Below, piece after piece: positions 19,335-56,768 of a stretch of 64,000 nucleotides of DNA; the stretch's first letter is position 1; each line of letters starts with the position of its first letter. The DNA lies in NCBI GenBank assembly GCA_964016885.1, contig OZ024740.1, forward strand, positions 337,714,001-337,778,000. The letters run 5' to 3'. The notes beneath the pieces were generated by a model that did not search any database, had not been told where the DNA came from, and saw nothing but the letters and a program-made list of their open reading frames with translations. The stretch comes from Eledone cirrhosa (taxonomy: Eukaryota). Position numbers and translations under genes: made by a program.

Positions 19335-19685
19335 TCCATGTGTCTAACACACGTGGACATGCCTACAAAATCAGAAAACAGCACAGCTCCCTTGACTTTC
19401 GTAAACATTTTTTCACGCTCAGAGTTGCTGAAGCATGGAACAAACTGCCTGCGTCAGTTGTTAGCTGCTGAGACACTGCATCCTTTAAAACCCTCATGCT
19501 TCCCGAAATACTCCAAAACTACACCTGATGTACCCCTTCCACACACATGCACACATGTGTATATCATGACTCATGCACTGTTCATTTTCCTGACGTTTGT
19601 ACATTACCCTATCTACTATACATACACTTTTTGATGAGTTGTAGTGCAACTGAGCACTGTACACAATATTTCATTATTATTATTA
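19335..19685 (+). mobile_element. CR1-type LINE 3' end
   Basis: Reads TRGHAYKIRKQH..FRKHFFTLRVAEAWNKLPASVV..FK (CR1 ORF2 C-terminus); 3' UTR ends in (ATT)n; 3' end repeated at ~28010-28168 and ~28787-28885. Confidence 0.8.
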
Positions 19686-24000: not shown

Positions 24001-24965
24001 TGTGCATTAGGGACTCGTAAAACCTATCCTTAAGTTCGTCTGGCAGCCCCGATTGGGGTGCGTAAGCTGATATTATTGTGGTAATTGTTTCGTTCAGGAC
24101 TAGTCTGAGTTTAATGATTCTTGCATTTACCCTGTACACTGAGATTACTTTATCTACCCACTTGTCAGCTAGTAGTATACCTACACCACCCATCCCATCG
24201 TCATTTCCCAACCAGAAAAATTTGTAGCACCAACTTTTTCCTACGAGGACTCTGGCAGACTCTCCTCTCCATCTAGTCTCTTGCACACAACATACATCAA
24301 TTTCCTTTCGCTCTAGCATTTCTACGATTTCTCCTGCTCTTCCTTTCATTGAGCCTACATTGATGGTACCAACTCGGAGTTTTGGGCATTTGTCGACACT
24401 CGTAGGGAAGGGTCTCTGGGTTGGCGCTTCACGTGGGTGCTTGGTAGCTCGCAGATTCATATTTCATCTATTGATTCAGAGTTGCTCAAATTTATTCTCA
24501 GCTCATCCATCCATAACGGTGGGAAAATTGAGGGCTAGAAGAACAGTGGTGGTGGGATAATGGCAGGGTGTGTTGGGCTGCGACAGAGTTAGTTAGGTAG
24601 TAGTAGTAGTAGTAGTAGTCGTAGTAGCAGCAGCAGCCGTAGAAATGGCATGTGGGGTTTCATTGGTCGAATAGGCTATAGCGGTGTGAGGGGGTGGGAG
24701 GGAGAGAAATTGTGATGTAGGCAATGAGGGTCGCCTTCAAGACCGCATGGTAAATCCGAAATAATAATAATAGAAAAACAGGGTAAATCCGAAATAATAC
24801 AGCAGAAAACATCAGTTATATTAATAATAATAATGTCATAACAGCTAAGATACCTTCTAAAATTTGTATGGATGGGTGGCTGGAACGAAACCGAATCAAC
24901 TCGAGTGACACATTTTAGCAGATAAGGAGAAAGTGTCTTATCTCTTCAATAGCGTCAAGACGAGT
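21042..24965 (-). mobile_element. Near full-length RTE LINE, ORF broken by stops and a frameshift
   Basis: ORF pieces 23513-24460 (APE), 22571-23413 and 21460-22497 (RT, YADD) nearly identical to 41700-44819; (GAT)n tail at 21042. Confidence 0.95.
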
Positions 24966-26300: not shown

Positions 26301-27449
26301 TGCAATCTCAGACCAGCATGAGGTATGCATACTTTTGTGTATAAAGAACATTTAAAGACAGAATGAAAATCACTCCCAATGCTATTGCTATTAATCTCAT
26401 CATCATCATCATCATCATCTTCGTTTAACGTCCATTTTCCACTTTTGTTTCAGTATGCCTAACTTTACAAAGCTCAACATTTTTAACACCGCTCCGAATC
26501 AAAGCTTCCTAATCTGCTATAAGTGATTCAAGGCATTTGTTTCATAATTTAAGACATTTCAAATTTAATTTTAAATACTCTTTGTATATTTTCTTTGGCT
26601 TACCATTTTTTCTCTTTCCTAGCATAAGCTCACCATAAAACATTTGTTTAGGAATGGGCTCATCATTCATATGGATGAGATGGCCTGTCCTTCATAGTTG
26701 ATTCCGAATAAGTATGGCTTAGATTGATGTGATCCTAGCTCAGTGAGAACCATATTATTCTGTGTATGTGGCAAGGGCATTTCAGGTGAAATCTTTCCAG
26801 CATTTTGGAGACTTCTGGTGTCCTTAGCCCGAGGGCCTCTTCCCTCCTCACACCCATCAGCAGAGAGTTGGCTACCCGCAGGTGTGAGCCTCGTGAGCTG
26901 GAATGGCTCTATCAGTGTATTTCCCCCACCATCCTCTGAGGAAATGCCTTCTCTATTCTGTCTGCTGGGGCTGAAGAGTAGCCAGCGCGTAGGCTCCCAT
27001 TTGCTCATAATAGTGAGAGATGGGGAGAGTGGGAGAGACGGACGCAGAGACAGTGGGTGTTTGGTTCCTTTGTGTTCGGACCTGGTGTATATGTATATAT
27101 TTCATGGACACACACTCACACTGAGGCACATTAATTTATGTGTAGGGTTAATTACCTTGATAGCTTATCTGTATAGCTGTCTGTCTGAACTTATATATTT
27201 ATTGTCTGTTTAGTTGAAAGTTATTTAAGTTATACAATTTCTTTTGTGGTGACATTGTCCAGTTATCCTAAGGCCCTGTACCACATTAGAAAAACATTCT
27301 ATAAAAGTTTGTCACATTAAAAATTAGTTTTTACTTTAGTTTATTGTAACTTTTCACAGCAATCTGTTCACTAGTAAAAATGACAAGTTTCCAAAGAATA
27401 CAGCAGTACAGAAAGAACACATGCAATATAAGATCATGATATATGTCTG

Positions 27450-28712: not shown

Positions 28713-29079
28713 CATGTAAAATAATAATGATGATGATGTATATCAGAAAGTTAAGGAGTGAAAATTGACATTATATGAGCCTGGAATTCCTGATGTTTGT
28801 ACATTACCCCATGTACTATACATACACTTTTTGATGAGTTGTAGTGCACCTGAGCACTGTACATAATATTTTCATTATTATTATATTAATCCTCCTCATT
28901 TCCCGAGCTCACTTTAAGAATCCTTTTAATTGCTATTTACTCAATCAAAAATATTTTATATACACATCCACATCACACAAGCATATTGTGGATGTGTACG
29001 TGAATATATTCATGTTTAGCAAATACAAGTACATAGGTATATATACATGTAAATGGTTGTCTGGGTTTTGAATGTTTGT

Positions 29080-29103
29080 ATGTATGTATAAATGTATGCT
29101 TGT

Positions 29104-29175
<72 letters not shown>

Positions 29176-29191
29176 AAATGTAAGCTTGTAA

Positions 29192-29225
<34 letters not shown>

Positions 29226-30625
29226 AAATGTATGCATGTAAGTGTGCATGTGTGTGTGTATGTGTGCATGTATGCATGTATGTGTGCATGTAAGTGTGTA
29301 TATGCATGTGTGTGTGTATGTATGTATGCATGTAAGTGTGCATGTGTGTGTGTATGTGTGCATGTATGTATGTATGCATGCATGCAAGTGTGCATGTGTC
29401 TGTGTATGTGTGCATGTATGTAAGTATCTATGCATGCAAGTAAGTGTGCATGTGTGTGTGTATGTGTGCATGTATGTATGCATGTAAGTGTGCATGTGTG
29501 TGTGTATGTGTGCATGTATGTATGCATGCATGTAAGTGTGCATGTGTGTGTATGTGTGCATGTATGTATGTATCTATGCATGCATGTAAGTGTGCATGTG
29601 TGTGTGTATGTGTGCATGTATGCATGTATGTGTGCATGTAAGTGTGTATATGCATGTGTGTGTGCATGTATGTATGTATGCATGCATGTAAGTGTGCATG
29701 TGTGTGTGTATGTGTGCATGTATGCATGTATGTGTGCATGTAAGTGTGTATATGCATGTGTGTGTGTGCATGTATGTATGTATGCATGTAAGTGTGCATG
29801 TGTGTGTGTATGTGTGCATGTATGCATGCATGTAAGTGTGTATATGCATGTGTGTGTGTGCATGTATGTATGTATGCATGTAAGTGTGCATGTGTGTGTG
29901 TATGTGTGCATGTATGCATGTATGTGTGCATGTAAGTGTGTATATGCATGTGTGTGTGTGTATGTATGTATGTATGCATGTAAGTGTGCATGTGTGTGTG
30001 TGTATGTGTGCATGTATGTATGTATGTGTGCATGTAAGTGTGTATATGTGTGTGTATGTGTGCATGTATGTATGTATGCATGTAAGTGTGCATGTGTGTG
30101 TGTATGTGTGCATGTATGTATGTATCTATGCATGCATGTAAGTGTGCATATGTGTGTGTATGTGTGCATGTAAATGTGTATATGCATGTGTGTGTGCATG
30201 TATGTATGTATGCATGCATGTAAGTGTGCATGTGTGCATGTATGTGTGCATGTAAGTGTGTATATGCATGTGTGTGTGCATGTATGTATGTATGTATGTA
30301 TGCATGTAAGTGTGCATGTGTGTGTGTATGCGTGCATGTATGTATGTATGCATGTAAGTGTGCATGTGTGTGTGTATGTGTGCATGTATGTGTGCATGTA
30401 AGTGTGTATATGCATGTGTGTGTGCATGTATGTATGTATGTATGTATGCATGTAAGTGTGCATGTGTGTGTGTATGCATGCATGTATGCATGTAAGTGTG
30501 CATGTGTGTGTGTATGTGTGCATGTATGTGTGCATGTAAGTGTGTATATGCATGTGTGTGTGCATGTATGTATGTATGCATGTAAGTGTGCATGTGTCTG
30601 TGTATGTGTGCATGTATTCATGCAT
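29080..30625. repeat. Higher-order purine-pyrimidine microsatellite (TG/TATG/CATG blocks punctuated by catgtaagtgtg)
   Basis: Seen directly; the H/T/Y/M-rich ORFs are artefacts. Confidence 0.95.
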
Positions 30626-32926: not shown

Positions 32927-34270
32927 CTCTTCCACCTGGCTGTGCTAAATATGTATTAGTCTTCTACCTGACTGTATTAAGTATGTATTAGTCTTCTACC
33001 TGACTGTGTTAAATGTGTATTGGTCTTATACCTGACTGTATTAAATATGTATTAGTCTTCTACCTGACTGTATTAAATGTGTATTAGTTTTCTACCTGAC
33101 TGTATTAAATGTGTATTAGTCTTCTACCTGACTGTGTTAAATGTGTATTGGTCTTCTACCTGACTGTATTAAATGTGTATTAGTCTTCTACCTGACTGTA
33201 TTAAATGTGTATTAGTCTTCTACCTGACTGTATTAAATGTGTATTAGTCTTCTACCTGACTGTATTAAATGTGTATTAGTCTACTACCTGGCTGTATTAA
33301 ATGTATATTAGTCTTCTACCTGGCTGTATTAAATGTGTATTAGTCTACTACCTGACTGTATTAAATGTGTATTAGTCTTCTACCTGACTGTATTAAATAT
33401 GTATTGGTCTTCTACCTGACTGTATTAAATGTGTATTAGTCTACTACCTGGCTGTATTAAATGTGTATTAGTCTTCTACCTGGCTGTATTAAATGTGTAT
33501 TACTCTTCTACCTGGCTGTATTAAATGTGTATTAGTCTTCTACCTGGCTGTATTAAATGTGTATTAGTCTTCTACCTGACTGTATTAAATATGTATTGGT
33601 CTTCTACCTGACTGTATTAAATGTGTATTAGTCTTCTACCTGACTGTATTAAATGTGTATTAGTCTTCTACCTGACTGTGTTAAATGTCTATTGGTCTTC
33701 CACCTGGCTGTATTAAATATGTATTAGTTTTCCACCTGACTGTATTAAATGTGTATTGGTCTTCTACCTGACTCTATTAAATGTGTATTAGTCTTCTACC
33801 TGACTGTATTGAATATGTATTAGTCTTCTACCTGGCTGTATTAAATGTGTATTAGTCTTCTACCTGACTGTATTAAATGTGTATTAGTCTTCCACCTGAC
33901 TGTATTAAATGTGTATTAGTCTTCTACCTGACTGTATTAAATATGTATTAGTCTTCCACCTGACTGTATTAAATATGTATTAGTCTTCTACCTGACTGTA
34001 TTAAATATGTATTAGTCTTCTACCTGACTGTATTAAATGTGTATTGGTCTTCTACCTGACTGTATTAAATGTGTATTGGTCTTCTACCTGACTGTGTTAA
34101 ATGTGTATTAGTCTTCTACCTGACTGTATTAAATGTGTATTAGTCTTCTACCTGACTGTATTAAATGTGTATTAGTCTTCTACCTGACTGTGTTAAATAT
34201 GTATTAGTCTTCTACCTGGCTGTATTAAATGTGTATTAGTCTTCTACCTGACTGTGTTAAATATCTATTG
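32927..34270. repeat. 32-bp minisatellite, ~42 copies
   Basis: Unit tattaaatgtgtattagtcttctacctgactg; period 32 (cctgactg at 33191 and 33223). Confidence 0.95.
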
Positions 34271-35900
34271 TTCTTTCCTCTGACTTAGTGACAAAAACAC
34301 AAATAAAAACAAGTGAAGAGTTTAATGGCCGTAATGAATGTGGAATCTAATGTTTTGAGCTTTGCCCTTTGTCTGATATTGGGAAAAAGATAAAACAGTG
34401 TTGCTTGAGTTTTAGATAAGTATGGGAACATGTGATATGTGTATTGAGAGATGTACACTGAGAGTGATGTATGAAAGGATATGAAATCTTGTGCATGAGG
34501 TGAATGAATGTGGAAGAAAATAAGGATTGAGAAGGGATGTTGAACAAGTCAATGTTTCAAACAAAGTAATGAATAAGGAATTCAAGTTAATTCTGGAATA
34601 ATATGTTAAGTAGAAGAATGGGAAAGAAAGAGAAACTGTACCTAGAAAACCTTTTTAAATATTGATGATCTGTAAGAAACTGCAACAAAATATTCTTTTA
34701 ATACTGCCTGCAAAAACGTTTAAATATACATGATAAATTAATACTGAAAACTAGATAGGGTGTTTTGACAAGATGGATAGTTGAACAAGGCATACTTGAC
34801 ACACACTAATATTTTTTACATCATGTGCAAATGTTGTCAGAAAATGACAATGACACGAATCTGCATGAAGCAGGCTCTAAAATATATAAAGATAATTGTT
34901 TTACAAAGTTTAGAGAATGCTTACCTCCAAATAACAACATTTACAAATAATCCAGAAAAATATTTTACAGGGACTGTGATTATCTCCCTTCTCAATGTTA
35001 CAAGTCAGCACAGAAAATATATAAAAATAAACATTCGGCAGACACAATAATCTTTGTAAAGGACAAAAAAAAAAGACTGCAATACAATATCAATAGAGGA
35101 GACACTATCATTAGGGGAGATATCAATTCACACAACTCCTTTTAGCTTTTAAATAGTACAGATAACAAAAGAGGTAACATGATATCACAAACTTACTTTA
35201 TATCCTAAATAAACCATATCAACATACACTTACACCCCACCAAGCCAACTACAACTTTTCCCCTGACATCACTTTCTACTCAACACTATCTACCATAACT
35301 ACTTTGCAAACAATTCCCCAAACTTTGCTTGGACCACCCACTATTTATCAAATCACTTTCAAACATCAGTGAAGAAATCAAAAACACTTTCATAAACTTA
35401 AAAAAATAAATTTAATTGTTCAACCAAGAAACAAAATTTAAATTTTCAAAATTCAACAATACAAACACCGACATAAACATTACAATACAAATAATCAGTG
35501 AAATAATTATAGACACATGCAAAAAAAAATATCTACAAATCAACATAAAAAATAAAATTCAAATTATAGACCAGAAATAGCTAACTTGATAAAAAAAACA
35601 GAGACAATCTTTGACACAAGTAAAATAAAACTCAGCATCAATGAAATAAAGAGACACTACCAGAATACAAGGAGACAACAGCACTCGTGTATGTGTATGG
35701 ACTCTGCCATATCACAGCCATCCCAGGCTTTAGTGATGACTGCGAGCCTTAACAACCTTTGAATGACTGCATTGATTTCATGTGCATATGCCCAATAGGG
35801 AATATTCATTGGCTTATTTTAGTCAGTCTGACACTGACTCTAGCAACACATGGCCACATAGATTCCTCTCTGACAAATCTCCAAAGTTCCTTCAGACCAC

Positions 35901-41649: not shown

Positions 41650-41703
41650 ATGGATGAGCTGAGAATACATTTGAGCAACTCTGAATCAATAGATGAAATA
41701 TGA
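41650..41703 (+). CDS. 17-aa upstream ORF whose stop overlaps the ORF2 start (ATGA)
   Basis: ATG 41650, MDELRIHLSNSESIDEI, TGA 41701-41703; ORF2 ATG 41700-41702; also present in the minus-strand copy. Confidence 0.45.
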   Translation: MDELRIHLSNSESIDEI

Positions 41704-44700
41704 ATCTGCGAGCTACCAAGCACCCACGTGAAGCGCCAACCCAGAGACCCTCCCCTACGAGTGTCGACAAATGCCCAAAACTCCGAGTTGGTACCATCAA
41801 TGTAGGCTCAATGAAAGGAAGAGCAGGAGAAATCGTAGAAATGCTAGAGCGAAAGGAAGTTGATGTATGCTGTGTGCAAGAAACTAGATGGAGAGGAGGG
41901 TCTGCTAGAGTCCTTGTAGGAAAAAGCCAGTGCTACAAATTTTTCTGGGTGGGAAATGACGATGGGATGGGTGGTGTAGGTATACTATTAGCTGACAAGT
42001 GGGTAGATAAAGTAATCTCAGTGTACAGGGTAAATGCAAGAATCATTAAACTCAGACTAGTCCTGAATAAGACAATTACCACAATAATATCAGCTTACGC
42101 ACCCCAATCGGGGCTGCCAGACGAACTTAAGGATAGGTTTTACGAGTCCCTAATACACACTACTGCTCTAACAGACGACAAGGACTTCCTAATCATTGCA
42201 GGAGATTTTAACGGACACGTAGGTAAACACTGCGACGGCTTCAATAGAGTACATGGAGGCCATGGAGTTGGCACAAGGAATGAGGAAGGATTCAGACTTC
42301 TAGAATTCTGCGACGCCAATGACATGTCGATATGTAATACAAACTTTAAAAAACCCGACAATCACCTGATCACCTATAGATCAGGGGAGCACTCTAATCA
42401 GTTAGATTTTATCCTCATCAGAGGACGTGACAGATGGACGGTCGTAAACACAAAAGCCTTCCCTAGTGAGAAATGTACATTCCAACATAGCTTAGTTGTC
42501 AGCGACCTCACGGTCAGAACTAGACGAACCCGGAAACAGAGGCCAACCTGGAGAAGAAAGATCTGGAAGCTGAAAGTCCCCTCAACCAGTAACAGATTTA
42601 AAGATATTTTACTCAACGCCTACGACAGTAAAGAAGAACAGATAGAGACATTTAACGTAGAAGAGAACTGGGAGTTCCTAAAAAATAACTTACTAGAGGC
42701 GACGGATGAGGTTTGTGGCTGGAGTAAGACCTCAAGCAGGAGGAGAGTGACTTGGTGGTGGAACAATAAGGTAGATGAAGCAGTCAAGGCCAAGAGACAG
42801 GCATGGAAAGAATGGAAGAACGGGGGGAGCAGTGTACATTACATAGAGACCAAGAGGGAAGCTAGGCGACAAGTATACTTAGCTAGGAGGGAAGCAGAGG
42901 ATAGAAAATTCAAGCATGTTTTACAACGTGAGGACCAGAAACAGGAGGTATTCAAGATTGCGAGGCAGTGTGTCAGAGATAGTTGTGATGTCATTGGAGA
43001 GAAGTGTATCCGGAATGATAAAGGTGAGCTTGCCCTCACAAGTGCTGAGAAGAAAGATGCATGGAAGAGTCATTATGATAGATTACTAAATGAGGAGAAT
43101 GCATGGGAAGAAGAGACCCTACCCCACGTAGACCCTATAGAGGGACCAGCAGTACAAGTCGGCGGCAGCGTAGTAAGTAAGGCAATCAGAGATATGAAGA
43201 TAGGGCAGGCAACCGGTCCATCGGGTATAGCTGCCGAGATGCTGAAGGCATCTGGGTCTGTAGGTCACACTATAACCACACGTATCGTTAACCAGGTAAT
43301 ACTAGAGGGGGCCATACCAAAAGATTGGTGCAGTAGCATCATTGTCAACTGCTACAAAGGTAAAGGCGATGCACTAGATAGAGGAAACTATAGAGGTATA
43401 AAGTTGATGGACCAGGTCATGAAAGTAACAGAAAGAGTTATAGCACAGCTGATTAGGGACCGGGTGAATATAGACGAGATGCAATTTGGGTTTGTACCAG
43501 GGAAAGGCACCACTGATGCCCTCTTCCTTGTGAGGCAATTACAGGAAAAGTACCTAGCTAAAAGTAAGCCACTCTACTTGGCATTTGTCGACCTTGAGAA
43601 AGCCTTTGACAGAGTTCCACGTGCAGTAATCTGGTGGGCTCTTAGAAAACTAGGAGTAGATGAATGGCTTGTGAAAGCGGTACAAGCCATGTATAGGGGA
43701 GCAGTCAGCAAAGTTAGGATTAGCAATGAGTATAGCGAGGAATTTAGCGTACAGGTTGGGGTCCACCAGGGCTCTGTTCTTAGCCCTCTCCTGTTCATCA
43801 TAGTCCTGCAGGCAATAACGGAGGAGTTTAAGACCGGATGCCCATGGGAACTCCTGTATGCTGATGACCTCGCACTCATAGCTGAATCTATGGTAGAACT
43901 AGAGAATAAATTCCAAACCTGGAAGCAGGGACTAGAGAGAAAGGGCCTCAAAGTCAACATGACAAAGACAAAGGTCCTTATAAGTAGACGAGAAAACAGA
44001 ACCCAGATCCCCTCAGGGAAATGGCCTTGCTCAGTATGTAGGAAAGGTGTAGGTAGGAACTCCATTCTCTGCCCCAAATGCAAACAATGGGTACACAAGA
44101 GATGTAGCGGGATCTCAGGAAGCTTAATTAAGAATGTAGGATTCACATGCAGCAGCTGTGCTGAAACAGCAAGCAAACAGCCACAGGAAACAAGTACCAC
44201 CAATCTCTGGGAGGGCCCTGTAGAAACAGTAGACAGCTTCTGCTACCTAGGTGACCGAATTAGCAGCGGAGGTGGGTGCTCAGAAAGTACAATAACTAGG
44301 GTAAGAACGGGATGGAAGAAGTTTAGGGAACTACTACCACTGCTAGCTGCAAAAGGCTTCTCCCTCAGAATGAAAGGCAGACTGTATGATGCGTGTATCC
44401 GAACAGCGATGTTGCATGGTAGTGAGACCTGGGCGCTGAAGGTGGAAGACTTACGTAGATTAGAGAGAAATGAAGCCTGCATGCTCCGATGGATGTGTAA
44501 CAGTAATATACTTGAACGACAAAGCATAAAGGAATTGAGAGAGAGACTGAGCATAAGAGGAATCAAATGCTGCGTGCAGGAGAGGCGGTTACGCTGGTAT
44601 GGACATGTGATGCGTATGAAGGATGACAGCTGCATAAAAAGGTGCAGAGCACTAGAAGTTGATGGAAACCGCGGAGTGGGGAGACCCAAGATGACTTGGG

Positions 44701-44819
44701 ATGAGGTGATAAAAGCCGACCTTACCCAACTACACCTCTCAAAGTCAATGACACACGACCGTGACTTCTGGCGTCTCGCAGTAATACAGGGTACCCGACC
44801 TCCCATGGGTACATGCTGA
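41700..44819 (+). CDS. RTE polyprotein: APE endonuclease + reverse transcriptase + PHD finger
   Basis: GTINV, CVQETRW, GVGI, SAYAPQ, GDFNGH, QLDFIL; QFGF, FVDLEKAFD, GVHQGSVLSP, YADD; C4HC3 motif at 44028-44159; RRLRWYGH, GRP..TW. Confidence 0.95.
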   Translation: MNLRATKHPREAPTQRPSPTSVDKCPKLRVGTINVGSMKGRAGEIVEMLERKEVDVCCVQETRWRGGSARVLVGKSQCYKFFWVGNDDGMGGVGILLADKWVDKVISVYRVNARIIKLRLVLNKTITTIISAYAPQSGLPDELKDRFYESLIHTTALTDDKDFLIIAGDFNGHVGKHCDGFNRVHGGHGVGTRNEEGFRLLEFCDANDMSICNTNFKKPDNHLITYRSGEHSNQLDFILIRGRDRWTVVNTKAFPSEKCTFQHSLVVSDLTVRTRRTRKQRPTWRRKIWKLKVPSTSNRFKDILLNAYDSKEEQIETFNVEENWEFLKNNLLEATDEVCGWSKTSSRRRVTWWWNNKVDEAVKAKRQAWKEWKNGGSSVHYIETKREARRQVYLARREAEDRKFKHVLQREDQKQEVFKIARQCVRDSCDVIGEKCIRNDKGELALTSAEKKDAWKSHYDRLLNEENAWEEETLPHVDPIEGPAVQVGGSVVSKAIRDMKIGQATGPSGIAAEMLKASGSVGHTITTRIVNQVILEGAIPKDWCSSIIVNCYKGKGDALDRGNYRGIKLMDQVMKVTERVIAQLIRDRVNIDEMQFGFVPGKGTTDALFLVRQLQEKYLAKSKPLYLAFVDLEKAFDRVPRAVIWWALRKLGVDEWLVKAVQAMYRGAVSKVRISNEYSEEFSVQVGVHQGSVLSPLLFIIVLQAITEEFKTGCPWELLYADDLALIAESMVELENKFQTWKQGLERKGLKVNMTKTKVLISRRENRTQIPSGKWPCSVCRKGVGRNSILCPKCKQWVHKRCSGISGSLIKNVGFTCSSCAETASKQPQETSTTNLWEGPVETVDSFCYLGDRISSGGGCSESTITRVRTGWKKFRELLPLLAAKGFSLRMKGRLYDACIRTAMLHGSETWALKVEDLRRLERNEACMLRWMCNSNILERQSIKELRERLSIRGIKCCVQERRLRWYGHVMRMKDDSCIKRCRALEVDGNRGVGRPKMTWDEVIKADLTQLHLSKSMTHDRDFWRLAVIQGTRPPMGTC

Positions 44820-45779: not shown

Positions 45780-46955
45780 GCACAAAACATTCTTGCATGT
45801 GTTGAATAAATCTTTTCTAACACACCATCCCATCATTCATTAGTCTTTTACCATCACCTCTCTGAGCTTCATGCAAGCATAGAAAACCTGATGTGCATAT
45901 ATAACATCATCATTGTCATTTTAATGTATGCTTTCCCTGCCAGCAAGATATATATATATACACATACAGTGTGTGTGTGTGTGTGTGTGTGGGTGTGAGT
46001 GTTTAAATAAATATATATTGTATAGATTCATGTATATATGAGTATATATATGTATATACAGATTCGTATATATATGTGTGTGTTCATGAGTATTAACAAC
46101 AGCATTTATATAAGTATTTGCATGAGCATATGTTTGTATGGGCACATACAGGAACACAATTTTCTAGCTAATCTTTACCATAACTTTTATTATAACTGTG
46201 ATTAATATTATAATATTAATATTATGATTAATATTATTGTCATTATCAATGCATATATATTACAGGAAATAATACTCCATGACATTTACCCTAAAGGTTG
46301 AATGTTCTTTTCAACAAAAAACAAAATATACTCTAATATATACAAACTAAAATATCATATAAGATTTAAGGATTTTATAATAACTAAACATTTAAAATGA
46401 TATATATATGGATAATATTAACCATATTATACCATAGATGTTTGGGCTTTGAGATGATAATGACAGGCTTATGAATATGAAATTGGCAATAGAAATTCAA
46501 CTTTGTGAGCAGAATTGAATTTTGTAAAACAACATGGTCATATTGTCAGAATAAATTATGTAAAATACATAAACAAATCATGCTGCAGATAATTATGTAT
46601 GAATATCATTATTATAGAGAAACGATGTTATATGAGGGCTGCAGCTTGATAAGATCTGTCTTCCCTATACCAGTGGTTGGTTTAATCGCAGTTGGAAGAA
46701 TATGCATGATTTAAATCACCCTTGAGTCATATGGTAGGGTGTCTGAGGTTGAGTATAGGTGTAAGATCTATGTCTGGCTTGGGTTTGATTTTCTGGATGT
46801 ATTGGGTTAGGGCAATCAATAGTCTTTGTTGCATATATATATATATATATATATGCATTGAAGTTTCCATTGAAAATTGAAAAAGTGATAGGAGTGAAGA
46901 GTGCTCTATGTAAGTTACAGAGCTAAATTTAATGTATAATAAACAATACAATATA

Positions 46956-47031
46956 ATTACCTCATTACCAGAGGTTTCCCGAATAAGACGAATACAATAA
47001 ACGTCCTCATTCGTTCGTCAGACAAGGCAAT
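46956..47031 (-). ncRNA. Type I hammerhead ribozyme motif
   Basis: Reverse complement of 56556-56631. Confidence 0.78.
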
Positions 47032-47771
47032 TTAAAACATAGTGAAATATTTGAAAAATCTCCTCAAGAAAGGCAAAAGTTTAACGGGCAAAAAAAATAT
47101 ATTAATAAAAGTAATGCAAGAGATATATAAAAATAAAATAAGGAAATATAGTTAGGGTATATATATAAATGTGTGTATATGCACTTACAAATGTACGTAT
47201 GTGTGTATATGTACAAATGCATGTGTATAGTGAAAAAATGTGTGCGTAAGTACATACATGAGGGCAAGCATATCAGTCTATGTGTGACCACAAATACGTA
47301 TATAATATATGTTGAAAAAAGAAATTGTAAGATAATGGAGTTAACGTACATACAGACTCAGGGACTAAGGATTGAAATATATACACATACAAGGATGAAA
47401 GCACGCGTATAAACACACACACGCACAACCACATACATGCAAGTGATATATACAGCGAAGAGAGTGTATCAGTCAAAGCAGTGTCAGGCTGAAGGTCGAC
47501 ACATATATAAAAAAATATGAAAATGAAATGAAAATGAAAAAATGAAAAAATATATGAGAATAAAAAAATTAAATCAAAGAGAAAGTAAGAGGGAGGGGTT
47601 ATCAATTATAAAGTAACACTAGAAAAAATAGAAAACATACATAGGTTCGTACATACATATATAAATATATATATAAATACGTACAGTCAAAAGCACATAC
47701 ATGCGTACATACATACACACGAAGCACATATATATGTACGTGTACATCTAATCACACGCACGCACGCGATC

Positions 47772-47804
<33 letters not shown>

Positions 47805-47807
47805 CAT

Positions 47808-47866
<59 letters not shown>

Positions 47867-48135
47867 TAGCGGCGATGAATTAGTTTTGCGAGGTTTTTTA
47901 TATGAAATCGTGTGTCGAAACAGATATTGTTATATTTGGGGAGGGTCATATTTGCGTAATATTGCCAGAATTAATAACAGAACACACTCACTGTTTGGTT
48001 GGTTTTCGCTTCTCGCTGTCTTTTATATATATATATCTGCGATCTAACTTACTCGGTCCTCAATGTTGCCATTGACTGACCGGCGGTCAAAAATAATACA
48101 GATACAATATAGACAAACACATATATATATAGTTT

Positions 48136-48192
48136 ACATAATTTACATAAATCTTTCGTTGCACATCTGCAACATCGTCAGTGGTGTTATAT
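48136..48192 (-). ncRNA. Type I hammerhead ribozyme motif
   Basis: Reverse complement of 55451-55507. Confidence 0.65.
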
Positions 48193-48442
48193 TCATTGTT
48201 CCTCCTGTTGTGTTGTATGTCTACGCCATTTTTTTTTTGTATGTTTATTTATTTATTTGCTTGTTTGTTTATCTTATTTTATTTTGTCTTCTTTGCGCAT
48301 GCGTTTGCGTGTGTGTATAGTGTTATGTGTGGTGTGTGACTAGTGTGTATAGTGTTGTGTCTGCTGGGTGACTAGTGTGTGTTTATGTGCTTGTGTATGT
48401 ATTTATTTATCTTATTTTATTTAATTTAATTTACTTATTTAT

Positions 48443-51400
48443 TTATACTTCTCTTAGGTCAGTGTTGTTTGTTTGGATGTTGTTGTTGTTCCACTCATTC
48501 TTTCTGTTTAGCTTTGGTCTTCTAATTTCTATTTCACTGGCCTCTCTGATTTGCCTATCTGCTGGGTCATTCCTATGTTTAGATATTATTCTAATTTCTA
48601 TGTTGTCTATGTTACCGTCATGTTGTTGTCTAGCATGTTCGTATAGTACTGACCCGTTTTTTCGTCCTTTTAGTTCCCCCCAGTGTTGGTCTATCCTTTC
48701 ACCTATGCTACGAGCTGTCTCACCTATGTATGTTGTTGTCGTGTTTCTGCAAGTACCCTCTGTACATCTTATGCTATAGACTACGTTTCTAGTTTTACAG
48801 TTTATCCGGGGGTTCACCTTACATATGATACATTTCCTATTGGTACAGTGGGTTTTCTTAAAAGGGTAGGTTTTGCTGATCAGGGATTTTATGGTGGTTC
48901 CTGGCTTTTCTACCACCTTTATTTTTAAGTGGGTCTTTCTCAGGGCCTTTCTACACTGGTTAGCTAATTTCCCTCCAGGGGTGGCGTCCACAAACATGAC
49001 ACTCTGATATCTCTGGTTGTCGTACCATGATGTGGCCTTCCCTATCTTATGTCTAGCCCTATCTAAGCTATTCCATGATTTGCTCCTGTATAGTGGGCAA
49101 GTTCCTTTCATGTCCAGTTCTATGAGGGTCTTATACTTTTCCATGGCTCCTTCGTATACTCTGACTCTGTCTCTTTGGTTGTAGCCAGAGAACTGCATGC
49201 GGTTGATGAAGTGTTGGATGTGTCCTTCCATTTTTGTTGGGTCGCACATGCTGGACACATTCTTCATCACTCGTACCAAATCTGCGATCAGAATATTAAA
49301 CTTAGCACTACTGGACATTGCTGAGTTTTTGAGTATCAGGTATTTGGAGGCCATGGGTTTAGCATAGTGTGAGTGGAGAATTTGGGCTCTCTCGTCTATA
49401 GTGTTAATCCAGAGTTCTGTGTCTAATACAGGTAGTCTATTGTTAGGGTGTTTGGAAGGGAAGTCTATAGTTACAGTTATACTCTGGTGTATGGAATTAG
49501 CTATCTGCTGGATGCTTTCCATCGTGCTACGTTCTAAATCAAACTTGTTAGTGCTCTCTAGTGGGGGTGTTCTTATAACTATATTGATATCGTCTACATA
49601 ACGAGAGTACATGATGAGGTCTATGGAGCTTTCATTAAGGAGATCTTTAAGTCTCCTTTCCCACCATACCATGAAAAGGTTGGCAACATCACCAGCTATG
49701 CTGACGCCGATGGCTGCTCCCTCATTTTGGGTGTAGATTTTCTCATTGAACTTAAATATGTGGCCCTTTAGGGTAGTTTTGATACTAGCCCCTATTGCAT
49801 GTGCGACCATTTTTCTTACCTGATCAGTGTTTTGGGGGGTCCGTATAGCTTTGGTCCACCCAATCCACCTTCCTATGGGAGTCTTTTTAGCCATTGAGGT
49901 TATGGTGGGGGGTCTACCTCTTATAGGTCTACTAGGGCAGAAACATCTAAGGTCATGGCTGTCTAGGTAGTCAGTGTCGTAGGTAAGTCTAAGTAGGAGG
50001 CCCAGTTCGTCTGTGTCGACGTCGCAGAACTCCACCTCACTCTCAATGATCATCTCCACACATCTTTTCACAGCAAAATCAATGTTAATGGATGGGTACA
50101 GTGACACCACATCCATGCTGCCTATTATGCAGTTGGATAGGCTCCTGTTTTTGTTGCACTCACTGATTCTGCTGAGGAGGTCCTCTGTACTTTCACATAC
50201 ATCTGGGGACATCTTGATTATGGGGCGTATAACCATTGAGAGGAAGTAGGAGATCCTGTAGTTGCTAGCTATATTAGCTCCGCATACGGGTCTTGTTGGT
50301 GGTCCTGTTGTCGGGTCGTCGACTGTCTTGTGGTCTTTGCGGAGCCCATACAAGGGTGGTATGCCATTGTTAGACGCCTGGAAGTTGTTGGCAGTGCGTC
50401 TGCTTGGCTTTAGGATGTCAGTCCACATCATCATGTGAGCGTTGAGGATTTTTTCTCTCCCATCGTGTGTTAGTTGTGCAACTTCGCTCGTGTTGGTGAT
50501 GTGGGGTTGCATTGCCTCGATGTAGTTCGGCATGCTATCTATTGACATCCTACCAGACTTATCTGTGGGTAGACACACTACCTCACCATCCCTTGTGCGC
50601 TGCTTGAGGCTAACCAAGCCTTCTACAGGTTTTATCCCAAGTTGTTGGGCCTCTGGTCTGCTCTGTCTCATAGTGTACCTGTCTACTACTTGTCTAATCT
50701 TATTTCTAGCTATGGTGAACTGTGCCTCTGTCTCGTCATCTATTTGCTGTGGTATGCAAACTCTTTTATTAAAGGGTAACCTCGTAGGATAGATATTACC
50801 CATCTTATATGTTTTGTCAGCTGGGTTGAAAAATAGTTTCTCTAAGGGGTTGTCGTTATTTCTATCGTCATAGTTGTGTGTGTTGCTATTATTGTTATCA
50901 TGGTGGTTGTTGTTGTTTCTATCATTAGCATTAATATTATTATTGTTATGATTGCTAGATGTATTGTTGTTTACTTCACCGTTATTGTTGTTGTTGTTAC
51001 TGCTATTTCTACCATTGTGGTTGTTACTATTATTATGTTTCTTGTTTTTGTTGATGTTGCTACATGTACTATTTCCATTATTACCACTGTGGTTATTGTT
51101 GTTGTTGTTGTTCGTATTGTTACCGTTATTACTACTGTGGTCACTGTTGCTGTGTCTGTGGTTAACGTTTCTATTATTATTATTATTGTGGTTGTTGTTG
51201 TTCTGTCTATCGCTAGTATTATTACCATTATCACTATTTCTCACTTTCCTGCCATTGTTATGGTTATGGCTGTTATTTCTATACCCAGAGTTATTGTTTA
51301 TATTACTACTACCGTTATTATTGTTGTTGTTGTTTACCTTTGCATTCCAACGTATTTTTGTGAAACACTTTTCCAGCTCCGTTTTGCATTCCATAGGGTT

Positions 51401-51835
51401 AATCTTTTTGTAGATGGCAAATTTTGGTGGTAACTTTAGGATTTGTTGTTCTTGTTCACTGATTAAAGTGTTCCCATAGATATTTACTGTGTGGTCATTG
51501 GTAAATTCTTCCGGTAGTTTTACATCACTCATACGGATGTTGTCGTTGTTATCTGGGTATTTTTGAGAATATTCGATTTTCCTTTCTTGTAGTTTTTTCT
51601 TATTCATCCATTCTAATTTCTTCTTGAAATGCCTACAGCATTCGTTTTGAGCATATTTCGTTTCGCGTCGGATGACGCTCATGAAGTCATCTCTCTCGTT
51701 TGCTGTGATGAGATTTCGGATTTCCTTACCGTTGATGCGTTTTTGTCTGTAGAGTGCGTTGACTTTTGTGTATGTTGTTCTTTTCATATTAACTGTTATT
51801 GTGTGTTTTAGCCGTTCAGCTTGTGTTTTGTTCAA
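48443..51835 (-). CDS. PLE polyprotein (N-terminal region with Asn-rich tract, RT, Cys linker, GIY-YIG); 5'-truncated, frame open up to the inversion junction
   Basis: PTDKSG, LYGLRKDHK, SMDVVSLYPSI, QNEGAAIG, YSRYVDD, LPVLD, CTNRKCIIC, NVVYSIRC..YIGETAR..RIDQH. Confidence 0.92.
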   Translation of the reverse strand: MNKTQAERLKHTITVNMKRTTYTKVNALYRQKRINGKEIRNLITANERDDFMSVIRRETKYAQNECCRHFKKKLEWMNKKKLQERKIEYSQKYPDNNDNIRMSDVKLPEEFTNDHTVNIYGNTLISEQEQQILKLPPKFAIYKKINPMECKTELEKCFTKIRWNAKVNNNNNNNGSSNINNNSGYRNNSHNHNNGRKVRNSDNGNNTSDRQNNNNHNNNNNRNVNHRHSNSDHSSNNGNNTNNNNNNNHSGNNGNSTCSNINKNKKHNNSNNHNGRNSSNNNNNNGEVNNNTSSNHNNNNINANDRNNNNHHDNNNSNTHNYDDRNNDNPLEKLFFNPADKTYKMGNIYPTRLPFNKRVCIPQQIDDETEAQFTIARNKIRQVVDRYTMRQSRPEAQQLGIKPVEGLVSLKQRTRDGEVVCLPTDKSGRMSIDSMPNYIEAMQPHITNTSEVAQLTHDGREKILNAHMMMWTDILKPSRRTANNFQASNNGIPPLYGLRKDHKTVDDPTTGPPTRPVCGANIASNYRISYFLSMVIRPIIKMSPDVCESTEDLLSRISECNKNRSLSNCIIGSMDVVSLYPSINIDFAVKRCVEMIIESEVEFCDVDTDELGLLLRLTYDTDYLDSHDLRCFCPSRPIRGRPPTITSMAKKTPIGRWIGWTKAIRTPQNTDQVRKMVAHAIGASIKTTLKGHIFKFNEKIYTQNEGAAIGVSIAGDVANLFMVWWERRLKDLLNESSIDLIMYSRYVDDINIVIRTPPLESTNKFDLERSTMESIQQIANSIHQSITVTIDFPSKHPNNRLPVLDTELWINTIDERAQILHSHYAKPMASKYLILKNSAMSSSAKFNILIADLVRVMKNVSSMCDPTKMEGHIQHFINRMQFSGYNQRDRVRVYEGAMEKYKTLIELDMKGTCPLYRSKSWNSLDRARHKIGKATSWYDNQRYQSVMFVDATPGGKLANQCRKALRKTHLKIKVVEKPGTTIKSLISKTYPFKKTHCTNRKCIICKVNPRINCKTRNVVYSIRCTEGTCRNTTTTYIGETARSIGERIDQHWGELKGRKNGSVLYEHARQQHDGNIDNIEIRIISKHRNDPADRQIREASEIEIRRPKLNRKNEWNNNNIQTNNTDLREV

Positions 51836-51873
51836 TAATAAATTATTTACTTGTTTTGATATGTTTGTTGTGT

Positions 51874-54800
51874 ATGTTTTGGAGGAAACACAGTGTTTTA
51901 AGACAAAAACGCATCAACGGTAAGGAAATCCGAAATCTCATCACAGCAAACGAGAGAGATGACTTCATGAGCGTCATCCGACGCGAAACGAAATATGCTC
52001 AAAACGAATGCTGTAGGCATTTCAAGAAGAAATTAGAATGGATGAATAAGAAAAAACTACAAGAAAGGAAAATCGAATATTCTCAAAAATACCCAGATAA
52101 CAACGACAACATCCGTATGAGTGATGTAAAACTACCGGAAGAATTTACCAATGACCACACAGTAAATATCTATGGGAACACTTTAATCAGTGAACAAGAA
52201 CAACAAATCCTAAAGTTACCACCAAAATTTGCCATCTACAAAAAGATTAACCCTATGGAATGCAAAACGGAGCTGGAAAAGTGTTTCACAAAAATACGTT
52301 GGAATGCAAAGGTAAACAACAACAACAATAATAACGGTAGTAGTAATATAAACAATAACTCTGGGTATAGAAATAACAGCCATAACCATAACAATGGCAG
52401 GAAAGTGAGAAATAGTGATAATGGTAATAATACTAGCGATAGACAGAACAACAACAACCACAATAATAATAATAATAGAAACGTTAACCACAGACACAGC
52501 AACAGTGACCACAGTAGTAATAACGGTAACAATACGAACAACAACAACAACAATAACCACAGTGGTAATAATGGAAATAGTACATGTAGCAACATCAACA
52601 AAAACAAGAAACATAATAATAGTAACAACCACAATGGTAGAAATAGCAGTAACAACAACAACAATAACGGTGAAGTAAACAACAATACATCTAGCAATCA
52701 TAACAATAATAATATTAATGCTAATGATAGAAACAACAACAACCACCATGATAACAATAATAGCAACACACACAACTATGACGATAGAAATAACGACAAC
52801 CCCTTAGAGAAACTATTTTTCAACCCAGCTGACAAAACATATAAGATGGGTAATATCTATCCTACGAGGTTACCCTTTAATAAAAGAGTTTGCATACCAC
52901 AGCAAATAGATGACGAGACGGAGGCACAGTTCACCATAGCTAGAAATAAGATTAGACAAGTAGTAGACAGGTACACTATGAGACAGAGCAGACCAGAGGC
53001 CCAACAACTTGGGATAAAACCTGTAGAAGGCTTGGTTAGCCTCAAGCAGCGCACAAGGGATGGTGAGGTAGTGTGTCTACCCACAGATAAGTCTGGTAGG
53101 ATGTCAATAGATAGCATGCCGAACTACATCGAGGCAATGCAACCCCACATCACCAACACGAGCGAAGTTGCACAACTAACACACGATGGGAGAGAAAAAA
53201 TCCTCAACGCTCACATGATGATGTGGACTGACATCCTAAAGCCAAGCAGACGCACTGCCAACAACTTCCAGGCGTCTAACAATGGCATACCACCCTTGTA
53301 TGGGCTCCGCAAAGACCACAAGACAGTCGACGACCCGACAACAGGACCACCAACAAGACCCGTATGCGGAGCTAATATAGCTAGCAACTACAGGATCTCC
53401 TACTTCCTCTCAATGGTTATACGCCCCATAATCAAGATGTCCCCAGATGTATGTGAAAGTACAGAGGACCTCCTCAGCAGAATCAGTGAGTGCAACAAAA
53501 ACAGGAGCCTATCCAACTGCATAATAGGCAGCATGGATGTGGTGTCACTGTACCCATCCATTAACATTGATTTTGCTGTGAAAAGATGTGTGGAGATGAT
53601 CATTGAGAGTGAGGTGGAGTTCTGCGACGTCGACACAGACGAACTGGGCCTCCTACTTAGACTTACCTACGACACTGACTACCTAGACAGCCATGACCTT
53701 AGATGTTTCTGCCCTAGTAGACCTATAAGAGGTAGACCCCCCACCATAACCTCAATGGCTAAAAAGACTCCCATAGGAAGGTGGATTGGGTGGACCAAAG
53801 CTATACGGACCCCCCAAAACACTGATCAGGTAAGAAAAATGGTCGCACATGCAATAGGGGCTAGTATCAAAACTACCCTAAAGGGCCACATATTTAAGTT
53901 CAATGAGAAAATCTACACCCAAAATGAGGGAGCAGCCATCGGCGTCAGCATAGCTGGTGATGTTGCCAACCTTTTCATGGTATGGTGGGAAAGGAGACTT
54001 AAAGATCTCCTTAATGAAAGCTCCATAGACCTCATCATGTACTCTCGTTATGTAGACGATATCAATATAGTTATAAGAACACCCCCACTAGAGAGCACTA
54101 ACAAGTTTGATTTAGAACGTAGCACGATGGAAAGCATCCAGCAGATAGCTAATTCCATACACCAGAGTATAACTGTAACTATAGACTTCCCTTCCAAACA
54201 CCCTAACAATAGACTACCTGTATTAGACACAGAACTCTGGATTAACACTATAGACGAGAGAGCCCAAATTCTCCACTCACACTATGCTAAACCCATGGCC
54301 TCCAAATACCTGATACTCAAAAACTCAGCAATGTCCAGTAGTGCTAAGTTTAATATTCTGATCGCAGATTTGGTACGAGTGATGAAGAATGTGTCCAGCA
54401 TGTGCGACCCAACAGAAATGGAAGGACACATCCAACACTTCATCAACCGCATGCAGTTCTCTGGCTACAACCAAAGAGACAGAGTCAGAGTATACGAAGG
54501 AGCCATGGAAAAGTATAAGACCCTCATAGAACTGGACATGAAAGGAACTTGCCCACTATACAGGAGCAAATCATGGAATAGCTTAGATAGGGCTAGACAT
54601 AAGATAGGGAAGGCCACATCATGGTACGACAACCAGAGATATCAGAGTGTCATGTTTGTGGACGCCACCCCTGGAGGGAAATTAGCTAACCAGTGTAGAA
54701 AGGCCCTGAGAAAGACCCACTTAAAAATAAAGGTGGTAGAAAAGCCAGGAACCACCATAAAATCCCTGATCAGCAAAACCTACCCTTTTAAGAAAACCCA

Positions 54801-55206
54801 CTGTACCAATAGGAAATGTATCATATGTAAGGTGAACCCCCGGATAAACTGTAAAACTAGAAACGTAGTCTATAGCATAAGATGTACAGAGGGTACTTGC
54901 AGAAACACGACAACAACATACATAGGTGAGACAGCTCGTAGCATAGGTGAAAGGATAGACCAACACTGGAGGGAACTAAAAGGACGAAAAAACGGGTCAG
55001 TACTATACGAACATGCTAGACAACAACATGACGGTAACATAGACAACATAGAAATTAGAATAATATCTAAACATAGGAATGACCCAGCAGATAGGCAAAT
55101 CAGAGAGGCCAGTGAAATAGAAATTAGAAGACCAAAGCTAAACAGAAAGAATGAGTGGAACAACAACAACACCCAAACAAACAACACTGACCTAAGAGAA
55201 GTATAA
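51874..55206 (+). CDS. PLE polyprotein, inverted copy; ATG and first residues come from the antisense of the spacer
   Basis: Same motifs as the left copy; in-frame ATG at 51874 (MFWRKHSVL-RQKRING); frame is open from 51799. Confidence 0.88.
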   Translation: MFWRKHSVLRQKRINGKEIRNLITANERDDFMSVIRRETKYAQNECCRHFKKKLEWMNKKKLQERKIEYSQKYPDNNDNIRMSDVKLPEEFTNDHTVNIYGNTLISEQEQQILKLPPKFAIYKKINPMECKTELEKCFTKIRWNAKVNNNNNNNGSSNINNNSGYRNNSHNHNNGRKVRNSDNGNNTSDRQNNNNHNNNNNRNVNHRHSNSDHSSNNGNNTNNNNNNNHSGNNGNSTCSNINKNKKHNNSNNHNGRNSSNNNNNNGEVNNNTSSNHNNNNINANDRNNNNHHDNNNSNTHNYDDRNNDNPLEKLFFNPADKTYKMGNIYPTRLPFNKRVCIPQQIDDETEAQFTIARNKIRQVVDRYTMRQSRPEAQQLGIKPVEGLVSLKQRTRDGEVVCLPTDKSGRMSIDSMPNYIEAMQPHITNTSEVAQLTHDGREKILNAHMMMWTDILKPSRRTANNFQASNNGIPPLYGLRKDHKTVDDPTTGPPTRPVCGANIASNYRISYFLSMVIRPIIKMSPDVCESTEDLLSRISECNKNRSLSNCIIGSMDVVSLYPSINIDFAVKRCVEMIIESEVEFCDVDTDELGLLLRLTYDTDYLDSHDLRCFCPSRPIRGRPPTITSMAKKTPIGRWIGWTKAIRTPQNTDQVRKMVAHAIGASIKTTLKGHIFKFNEKIYTQNEGAAIGVSIAGDVANLFMVWWERRLKDLLNESSIDLIMYSRYVDDINIVIRTPPLESTNKFDLERSTMESIQQIANSIHQSITVTIDFPSKHPNNRLPVLDTELWINTIDERAQILHSHYAKPMASKYLILKNSAMSSSAKFNILIADLVRVMKNVSSMCDPTEMEGHIQHFINRMQFSGYNQRDRVRVYEGAMEKYKTLIELDMKGTCPLYRSKSWNSLDRARHKIGKATSWYDNQRYQSVMFVDATPGGKLANQCRKALRKTHLKIKVVEKPGTTIKSLISKTYPFKKTHCTNRKCIICKVNPRINCKTRNVVYSIRCTEGTCRNTTTTYIGETARSIGERIDQHWRELKGRKNGSVLYEHARQQHDGNIDNIEIRIISKHRNDPADRQIREASEIEIRRPKLNRKNEWNNNNTQTNNTDLREV

Positions 55207-55450
55207 ATAAATAAGTAAATTAAATTAAATAAAATAAGATAAATAAATACATACACAAGCACATAAACACACACTAGTCACCCAGCAGACACAACACTAT
55301 ACACACTAGTCACACATAACACTATACACACACGCAAACGCATGCGCAAAGAAGACAAAATAAAATAAGATAAACAAACAAGCAAATAAATAAATAAACA
55401 TACAAAAAAAAAAATGGCGTAGACATACAACACAACAGGAGGAACAATGA

Positions 55451-55507
55451 ATATAACACCACTGACGATGTTGCAGATGTGCAACGAAAGATTTATGTAA
55501 ATTATGT
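55451..55507 (+). ncRNA. Type I hammerhead ribozyme motif in the PLE 3' UTR
   Basis: atataa-cac-ca CTGACGA t gttgca-gatg-tgcaac GAAA gatt TA tg-taaa-ttatgt. Confidence 0.65.
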
Positions 55508-56555
55508 AAACTATATATATATGTGTTTGTCTATATTGTATCTGTATTATTTTTGACCGCCGGTCAGTCAATGGCAACATTGAGGACCGAGTAAGTTAGA
55601 TCGCAGATATATATATATAAAAGACAGCGAGAAGCGAAAACCAACCAAACAGTGAGTGTGTTCTGTTATTAATTCTGGCAATATTACGCAAATATGACCC
55701 TCCCCAAATATAACAATATATATATTCATATATAAATATACACACACACACACACATATACATAAGTATGTAAAAAACATAGAAATAAAAACACACATAC
55801 ACACACATATACACATACACATACGAATGCATTCGTATACATATACAAACACGTATACACACACATGCACGCTCGCACGCATAGATACAATATAAAAACC
55901 AGCCGTATGAATAAATGAGTACAAATTATACGCAAGTAAACATACATAAAAGTGGCTGAGAGACAACAGACTATATCTCAAAACGCAAGTGACATGTGGT
56001 ATCAGGTAGTGAAAGAAAAGGGGGGAAGTAAAATATGTAAAATTGTGAAGATATAAAGTAAGTGAATCAAAATGAGGGGGGGGGGGGGGGGCACTGATGG
56101 ATGTGAAGTAAAAATAAAGTTAAAAATAAAAGTAAATCAGAAAGAGGTCTGTAAAGAGGGTAATTTAAGGAAAGTGAAGAACAAGAGTTTATGGAGGATA
56201 AGTATCTGAAAGTGAGTTAAGTTTATATGAGCTGGAAAGCAAGTGTGATTTCATGTGTGGGCAACTGGTGAAAATTTCTATTTTGGCATTTAGGCAGGTT
56301 TTTGGTGATTTAAGGTATGCTTGCCCTCATGTATGTACTTACACACACATTTTTTCACTATACACATGCATTTGTACATATACACACATATGTACATTTG
56401 TAAGTGCATATACACACATTTATATACATACCCTAACTATATTTCCTTATTTTATTTTTATATATCTCTTGCATTACTTTTATTAATATCTTTTTTTTGC
56501 CTGTTAAACTTTTGCCTTTCTTGAGGAGATTTTTCAAATATTTCACTATGTTTAA

Positions 56556-56631
56556 ATTGCCTTGTCTGACGAACGAATGAGGACGTTTATTGTATTCGTC
56601 TTATTCGGGAAACCTCTGGTAATGAGGTAAT
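56556..56631 (+). ncRNA. Type I hammerhead ribozyme motif
   Basis: attgccttgt CTGACGA ac gaatgaggacg..cgtcttattc gg GAAA cc-tct-gg TA atgaggtaat; 10-bp stem I including G-U pairs. Confidence 0.78.
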
Positions 56632-56768
56632 TATATTGTATTGTTTATTATACATTATATATATATATATATATATATATATAGGAACCTATTACCCACT
56701 CTACTACCTCAAGTATTGAGTACTTTGGTGCGTTATGGTCCACCTGGTTCCTTACCACATTTCCTTCG

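Follow-up and report, generated by a model that had tools for sequence, protein, structure and literature searches.

The analyzed stretch of DNA (the window, 64 kb in length) carries a long palindrome that is most likely one genuine insertion. We propose that a Penelope-like element (PLE) targeting (TA)n inserted here once, and recently, and that the two arms of the palindrome probably come from two separate starts of reverse transcription (RT), one on each cut strand of the target. The architecture is already published, and the palindrome is a long, ordinary PLE insertion. The locus itself therefore matters little, being a long example of a published shape; the useful part of the analysis lies in counts made across the family to which it belongs.

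Anatomy of the palindrome and its element family

Self-comparison of the window placed the inverted arms at 47924-51748 and 51901-55719, with 99.69% identity over 3,826 columns, a match for which chance need not be considered. The arms differ by four substitutions, one 7-bp indel, and one 1-bp homopolymer indel, and they enclose a nonmirrored center of 152 bp (51749-51900). The near-identical arms and the 152-bp center described in the initial annotation are thus present in the assembly, as is the tail of ~59 bp that it had placed at the outer end of the left arm only (47865-47923, minus strand). When the unit is numbered with the native ATG as +1, the left arm (47865-51903, minus strand) is a 5'-truncated PLE copy that begins at +173, crosses the 3' UTR, and ends at +85 of the following unit, and its tail corresponds to +27 to +85 of that following unit's ORF. 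The right arm (51901-55719, plus strand) is also a 5'-truncated copy; it runs from +328 to a tail-less end at +26 of the next unit and lies wholly inside the sequence range of the left arm. The 152-bp "spacer" is the surplus 5' ORF sequence of the left arm (minus strand) and contains neither pLTR nor target DNA. At the head-to-head junction, the arms overlap by 3 nt of microhomology (AGA/TCT, 51901-51903).

Stop-free frames were found in both arms, at 48443-51913 on the minus strand and at 51793-55206 on the plus strand. The claim that each arm holds an open RT-GIY-YIG frame was confirmed, the RT by a subthreshold RVT_1 match and the endonuclease motifs by alignment with homologues. The description of the elements as ORF intact had to be given up. 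In natural tandem copies the ORF is 1,211 aa long and begins with MTLPKY, its ATG lies inside the 3' end of the preceding unit (the pLTR), and the N termini of the homologues align to this ATG; both arms of the palindrome are truncated at the 5' end. The left-arm frame (48443-51903, minus strand) covers codons ~59 to 1211, with 58 codons missing at the N terminus and the first in-frame ATG at codon 97 (51787), while the right-arm frame (51901-55206, plus strand) covers codons 110 to 1211, with 109 codons missing and a chance in-frame ATG at 51874 in antisense spacer sequence. The only native ATGs at the locus, at 47949 (minus strand) and 55694 (plus strand), mark the start of the next unit's ORF within the pLTR end (55694-55719 on the plus strand, and its mirror image), and they are located at the outer ends, directed outward into the flanks.

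Along the plus strand of the right arm, an Asn-rich segment of ~185 aa, 85 of them Asn, lies between the N-terminal region and the RT (approximately 52270-52827; mirrored in the left arm). The RT core region with the motif YVDD follows at 53401-54300, where the RVT_1 match (E value = 2e-5, 24.9 bits) was below the Pfam cutoff of 29.6, and alignment placed at 54802-55160 the CX4CxxC linker together with a GIY-YIG-type endonuclease in which R, H, H, H, E, and N are conserved. Pfam searches with the whole arm proteins gave zero matches, and a search with the endonuclease region alone gave none. When aligned with five homologues, the endonuclease motifs show no variation, and one of the five, P0091, has a Pfam GIY-YIG match. 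The linker reads CTNRKCIIC, with C68, C73, and C76 invariant, and the endonuclease carries a CCHH motif (VVY-SIRC-TEGTC-...-YIG) with two Cys between VVY and YIG and with H122, H138, and H143 invariant; the RT motif DKG is present in the form DKS. The top homologue of 355 shared 68% identity and bears the name of an Octopus vulgaris protein in its source record, which suggests an octopus-like host; among 120 homologues listed, 4 have a name of any sort, in no case that of a clade. A PDB sequence search gave best E values of only 0.27 and 1.1.

These results support the Penelope-like identity proposed earlier. The features of endonuclease-bearing PLEs were found together: a single RT plus GIY-YIG ORF, pLTR tandems, an inverted truncated copy, and a target duplication. 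By the motif criteria of PMC8557442, we provisionally place the family among the C-terminal-endonuclease PLEs of the Neptune/Nematis type. In that type, too, the RT is followed by a CX4CxxC linker (one form of a Zn-finger-like CX2-5CxxC linker) and then by a GIY-YIG endonuclease with CCHH, and (TA)n targeting, which PMC8557442 ties to the linker, is likewise seen in the family studied here. The family differs from that type in its Asn-rich segment before the RT and in DKS, and only half of a hammerhead core was found. Two other assignments were rejected: Naiad/Chlamys, which have an N-terminal GIY-YIG domain, whereas the endonuclease here is C terminal, and the Hydra clade (no CCHH, a CxCX5C linker, DKT, and a length of <3 kb), whereas CCHH, CX4CxxC, DKS, and a 4.15-kb unit were observed here.

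The hammerhead-like half core, which consists of CUGACGA, a bulged U, a 6-bp helix II, and GAAA, lies at 55462-55489 on the plus strand and is mirrored at 48154-48181 on the minus strand; its helices I and III were not convincing. Rfam returned no hammerhead for 46 to 58 kb of the window, for one natural pLTR, or for a motif in the host repeat described below, and its matches were microsatellite-driven miRNA and other chance ones, all below the gathering score. Asn-rich inserts are also carried in frame within the PLE ORFs of Pen2a, Pen3, and Pen4 of Adineta vaga (PMC3846280). As described there, they occupy the RT-EN or the RT core-thumb position and measure 460 to 554 aa or ~1.5 kb, whereas the segment here is N terminal to the RT and ~185 aa long. 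The closest named homologue also has a Gly/Ser/Asn-rich stretch upstream of the RT, and more distant homologues have a short linker at this place. The family is young and abundant: its unit of ~4.15 kb occurs in tandem arrays and partial tandems, and exact matches in the assembly numbered 291 for a 5' 28-mer and 2,854 for an endonuclease 30-mer.

Insertion site and the family's usual shape

The palindrome was inserted at a (TA)n run within an older host repeat, which it divides into a left half (46833-47863) and a right half (55716-56316). In 17 of the 19 other copies fetched, the left flank runs via a short microsatellite straight into the match to 55716-56316, so that the two halves directly adjoin each other. 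The insertion is flanked by a direct repeat of at most 15 bp, of which 7 bp are unambiguous: the left copy, ATATATATATTCATA, lies at 47854-47868 (plus strand), its last 4 nt also matching the tail end of the element, and the right copy lies at 55716-55730 (plus strand), its first 4 nt being common with the element end. The base at 52103 is common to both arms and, with just 2 matches in the assembly, private to them, which indicates that both arms derive from one template lineage. Both arms also share a rare deletion in the 3' UTR. The initial annotation had postulated one integration event, and the colinear flanks in the host repeat, the target duplication, and the variant private to both arms all agree with it.

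We considered whether the palindrome could be a fold-back read or an assembly artifact of a single copy. No read or contig of the public runs spanned the junction. Contigs of three of these runs, which need not belong to this assembly, show only the normal continuation of the element at the junction, and the 52103 variant is missing from the contigs of four public runs (compared at 51749-52310); contigs drop rare variants, and the absence of the junction shows neither presence nor absence of the locus. The structure of the locus argues the other way. A fold-back artifact would mirror the flanks, whereas the flanks here differ and are colinear. Each arm carries its own mutations: all four substitutions are C:G>T:A, three derived on the left and one on the right, and the right arm has also lost 7 bp. 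C:G>T:A changes distributed over both arms are what is expected of mutations that followed the insertion. Furthermore, the two ends fall exactly on the +26 and +85 ends of the family, and a target duplication flanks the whole. We therefore judge an artifact to be very unlikely.

Another reading is that two separate insertions entered one microsatellite and were later homogenized by gene conversion. Such a coincidence would be eased by the abundance of the family (the 2,854 endonuclease matches) and by its site preference, all scored copies being located in (TA)n runs. However, the arms join ORF to ORF with the 3-nt overlap and with target DNA absent between them, and a single duplication flanks both. 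Among the first 100 of the 2,854 matches, inspected by eye, neighbors on opposite strands were arranged head to head in 11 cases and tail to tail in 1. Moreover, the distribution of tails described below would not follow from independent insertions. This reading is already largely refuted, and we give it almost no credence. At the other loci, target duplications were mostly uninformative, being pure (TA)n; duplications of 13 to 18 bp with non-TA letters were found at L038, L043, L053, L106, and L111.

Next, we looked at how common the head-to-head shape is in two samples of the family. The first 100 of the 291 matches fall at 85 loci other than the palindrome, and 76 of these make up sample 1, which is biased toward near-full-length copies; sample 2 comprised 40 loci found with an anchor close to the 3' end, including 7 handpicked as pairs. 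The head-to-head pair is the family's usual insertion shape, observed at 51 of the 76 other loci in sample 1 and at 21 of 40 in sample 2, including 14 of the 33 loci not picked as pairs. At the 51 other head-to-head loci of sample 1, the shorter arm had a median length of 1,245 bp; it was <500 bp at 17 loci and at least 1 kb at 31, and it was at least as long as the arms of the palindrome at 4. An inverted arm that spans nearly the whole ORF had been presented as exceptional, and a survey of arm length in the family had been suggested; over the sampled loci, that survey did find long inverted arms, but the exceptional length of this one did not hold, as both arms reached at least 3 kb at 9 of the 51 other loci. 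Complete ORFs were present in both arms at L067 and L087. Among the 14 loci with the longest arms, the unpaired centers ranged from 152 to 3,268 bp, with the palindrome the shortest and the next at 320 bp, and this short unpaired center is the sole distinction of the locus.

The canonical insertion unit of endonuclease-bearing PLEs, as set out by Craig et al. in 2021 (PMC8557442) and seen in Pen2a_Av (PMC3846280), has the same layout: pLTRs in partial tandem with an adjoining inverted, 5'-truncated copy that is mostly head to head, a tail that is often single ended, an ORF start inside the pLTR, and a short target duplication. The tail is given there as 30 to 40 bp, compared with 43 to 59 bp in the family studied here (ends at +69 or +84). 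The family also departs from the canonical unit in that its inverted arms are often kilobases long, and the palindrome locus departs from it in the absence of a direct upstream pLTR.

Several sampled loci had further structure. A 3.3-kb inverted arm precedes the tandem array at L031-L034 (G000:C28:42008000-42047999), which has at least nine units; the 1,211-aa ORF is found in three of them and a common shorter frame of 1,040 aa in the next three, which suggests that part of the array may have expanded later. At L058 and L087, an inverted similarity of 87 to 88% over ~700 bp extends past the element into both flanks, and these insertions also seem to lie within an older inverted repeat. In the window, the summed depth of the public runs over the last ~160 bp of the element (55560-55715) was far above that at the ORF start, which hints at numerous very short copies of the 3' end or at short related repeats.

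Proposed priming of the two target strands

The 3' ends of the arms in sample 1 clustered at +26 (57 arms), +69 (14 arms), and +84/85 (31 arms), and each class finishes in TA-like bases adjoining (TA)n. We scored tails at the 52 head-to-head loci of sample 1, the palindrome included; 44 were scorable, and 8 that were cut off or broken were dropped. One tailed and one tail-less end were found in 43 of the 44 scorable pairs (binomial test, P value = 5e-12), with a single exception, L084, that was tail-less on both arms. The tail was on the longer arm in 21 pairs and on the shorter arm in 22. In sample 2, 14 of 16 scorable pairs were single tailed, the exceptions L137 and L154 being tailed on both arms, and 6 pairs could not be scored. 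With both samples together, 57 of the 60 scorable pairs were single tailed. A hidden, tiny inverted tail piece was also sought in single-arm copies, and none of the 23 had a match of >8 nt.

We also asked whether one arm of a pair was contained in the other. In sample 1, neither arm contained the other at 11 of 48 uncut loci (9 after the removal of 2 with secondary breaks), and in sample 2, this was true of 14 pairs (10 after the removal of 4 broken ones). In total, there were 19 clean loci at which each arm holds sequence absent from the other. At family polymorphisms, the arms of one locus differed at 7 sites in 74 kb, compared with 1.9 per kb between loci, in a comparison where several rows come from one locus. 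Junctions overlapped by at least 2 nt in 15 of the 37 measured, against ~14% by chance; 5 others were blunt, and 14 had extra or mismatched bases.

From the one-tail rule and the mutual non-containment of arms, we infer that the two strands were primed separately rather than by the folding back of one strand. The endonuclease would cut both strands of the (TA)n run in a staggered fashion. Of the two 3' ends of the target, one would then start RT at position +26 of the RNA, and its partner would start at the end of the tail (+69 or +84), with one RNA species serving both strands as the template. Both cDNAs would extend toward the 5' end of the RNA, halt at unrelated points, and be joined at their ends via a few matching bases. 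At the palindrome, both cDNAs would have run nearly the full unit (to +173 and +328), leaving the 152-bp unpaired center. In L1 twin priming, both target strands likewise act as primers and microhomology brings the cDNAs together head to head, but the second primer anneals at an internal site, so that each arm copies a different part of the RNA. In contrast, both arms in the family studied here begin at the 3' end and overlap, which yields a palindrome.

The closest experimental parallel to separate priming of the two strands is PAc (Poseidon of Anolis carolinensis), an anole PLE that cleaves and extends both target strands in vitro and starts RT at two sites flanking the tail; it is predicted to act as a dimer (PMC11167929). 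PAc resembles the family in its discrete ends flanking the tail, its AT-rich targets, and the extension of both strands. It differs in that it belongs to another clade and is without the linker Zn finger. No difference in start site between strands was found for PAc (PMC11167929), and the sections of that study considered here are silent on inverted arms and on the one-tail rule. In the open-access literature searched, we found no statement of the two-strand priming model; Arkhipova 2006 and Evgen'ev and Arkhipova 2005 may already discuss it or the long arms.

Alternatively, one first strand could have folded back or primed itself, on the new cDNA or on an antisense template, and then been copied into the inverted arm; antisense self-priming has been proposed for head-to-head PLE repeats (Arkhipova et al. 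2013, PMC3846280). The palindrome locus alone also fits this scenario, since its right arm lies within its left arm, and both arms share the genome-private base at 52103 and the rare 3' UTR deletion. We rejected shared private variants as proof of fold-back, because direct tandem units likewise share variants private to their locus (18 in 52 kb). Across the family, the 19 mutually non-contained loci rule out simple fold-back at those loci. In addition, the tailed arm was the shorter one in 22 of 43 pairs, and the centers of the 14 longest-armed loci are not the short loops that fold-back calls for. Fold-back is therefore an unlikely origin of the pairs, and we retain separate priming of the two strands.

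Two-strand priming may also be coupled, such that one strand would prime at +26 and the other would be forced onto the still-single-stranded tail; taken as a whole, consequences included, this stands at roughly even chances. If it is true, the tail records the second priming event, and a young family in an octopus-like genome seeds hundreds of multikilobase, near-perfect inverted repeats, some of them capable of forming long hairpin RNA. The origin of the inverted repeats and one-sided tails of PLEs is called unresolved in PMC8557442, and the family-wide counts of tails and of arm containment yield a prediction that can be tested in the existing in vitro system for PLEs.

Functions proposed for the palindrome and its surroundings

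With neither the native start nor an upstream pLTR in either arm, the palindrome is likely a dead-on-arrival copy, and we rejected a transposition-competent full-length copy on the same features (arms beginning at +173 and +328). One alternative, in line with proposals in the initial annotation, is a working unit that expresses protein in both directions or whose RNA folds into a 3.8-kb hairpin and feeds small-RNA silencing or A-to-I editing. Both frames are indeed open and have in-frame ATGs (51787 on the minus strand and 51874 on the plus strand), any transcript crossing both arms would be expected to pair over 3.8 kb, bidirectional pLTR promoters have been raised as a possibility, and antisense small RNAs have been shown for rotifer PLEs (PMC3846280). 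However, the center is ORF sequence from which the pLTR is absent, and both products would miss the conserved first 96 to 109 residues. Open frames are also expected in young copies (~0.1% arm divergence) and are present at other loci. A working unit is thus improbable, and two-way protein expression in particular is unlikely from arms with neither the native ATG nor the conserved N terminus and upstream pLTR. Judged by the sequence, double-stranded RNA would be possible only with a transcript that crosses both arms.

Extrusion of a cruciform, also proposed earlier, is unlikely given the 152-bp spacer (PMC8053094 and PMC3215922). With inverted Alus in yeast, a 9-bp spacer lowers breakage by 80%, and structures form far less readily when the spacer is long (PMC8053094); beyond 100 bp, hairpins are said to be rare (PMC3215922). 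The yeast study also cites breakage at Ty1 repeats separated by ~280 bp, and by analogy, a hairpin may form in single-stranded DNA under replication stress. The family is a large source of long inverted repeats in the genome, a matter of relevance to assembly quality and possibly to the double-stranded RNA load.

The host repeat (46833-47863 plus 55716-56663) gave 1,546 first-look candidates in the assembly. It is bounded by (TA)n on either side and has inverted arms of 349 bp (46924-47272 and 56316-56663, 97.7% identity), with an extension of ~80 bp on the left arm only; near 56566, a motif resembling a hammerhead is predicted to fold as a three-way junction (z = -1.4, no Rfam match). By these features, the host repeat looks like an older head-to-head PLE-type insertion itself. 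Elsewhere in the window, remnants at 3-2547 and 7885-9665 show PLE-like RT and endonuclease motifs by eye, the latter with inverted arms of 361 bp (8247-8607 and 9305-9665, 98% identity). A 1.1-kb inverted repeat (4602-5700 and 5969-7067, 99% identity) with a 268-bp center adjoins (TA)n, and its one long frame had no Pfam match. At 41697-44819, a LINE, which we take to be RTE-like, has an open frame of 1,040 aa with AP endonuclease, RT, and PHD finger; a broken copy in inverted orientation lies 17 kb away at 21042-24697 (95.6% identity). Eight long frames in the 64-kb window were tested as host exons and had no significant Pfam match; stop-free frames of ordinary composition at 26670-27101 (minus strand) and 19161-19631 (plus strand), with no Pfam match, could be exons. 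The window also contains a tandem repeat with a 32/64-bp period (32928-34285) and a complex CA/TG minisatellite (29026-30625).
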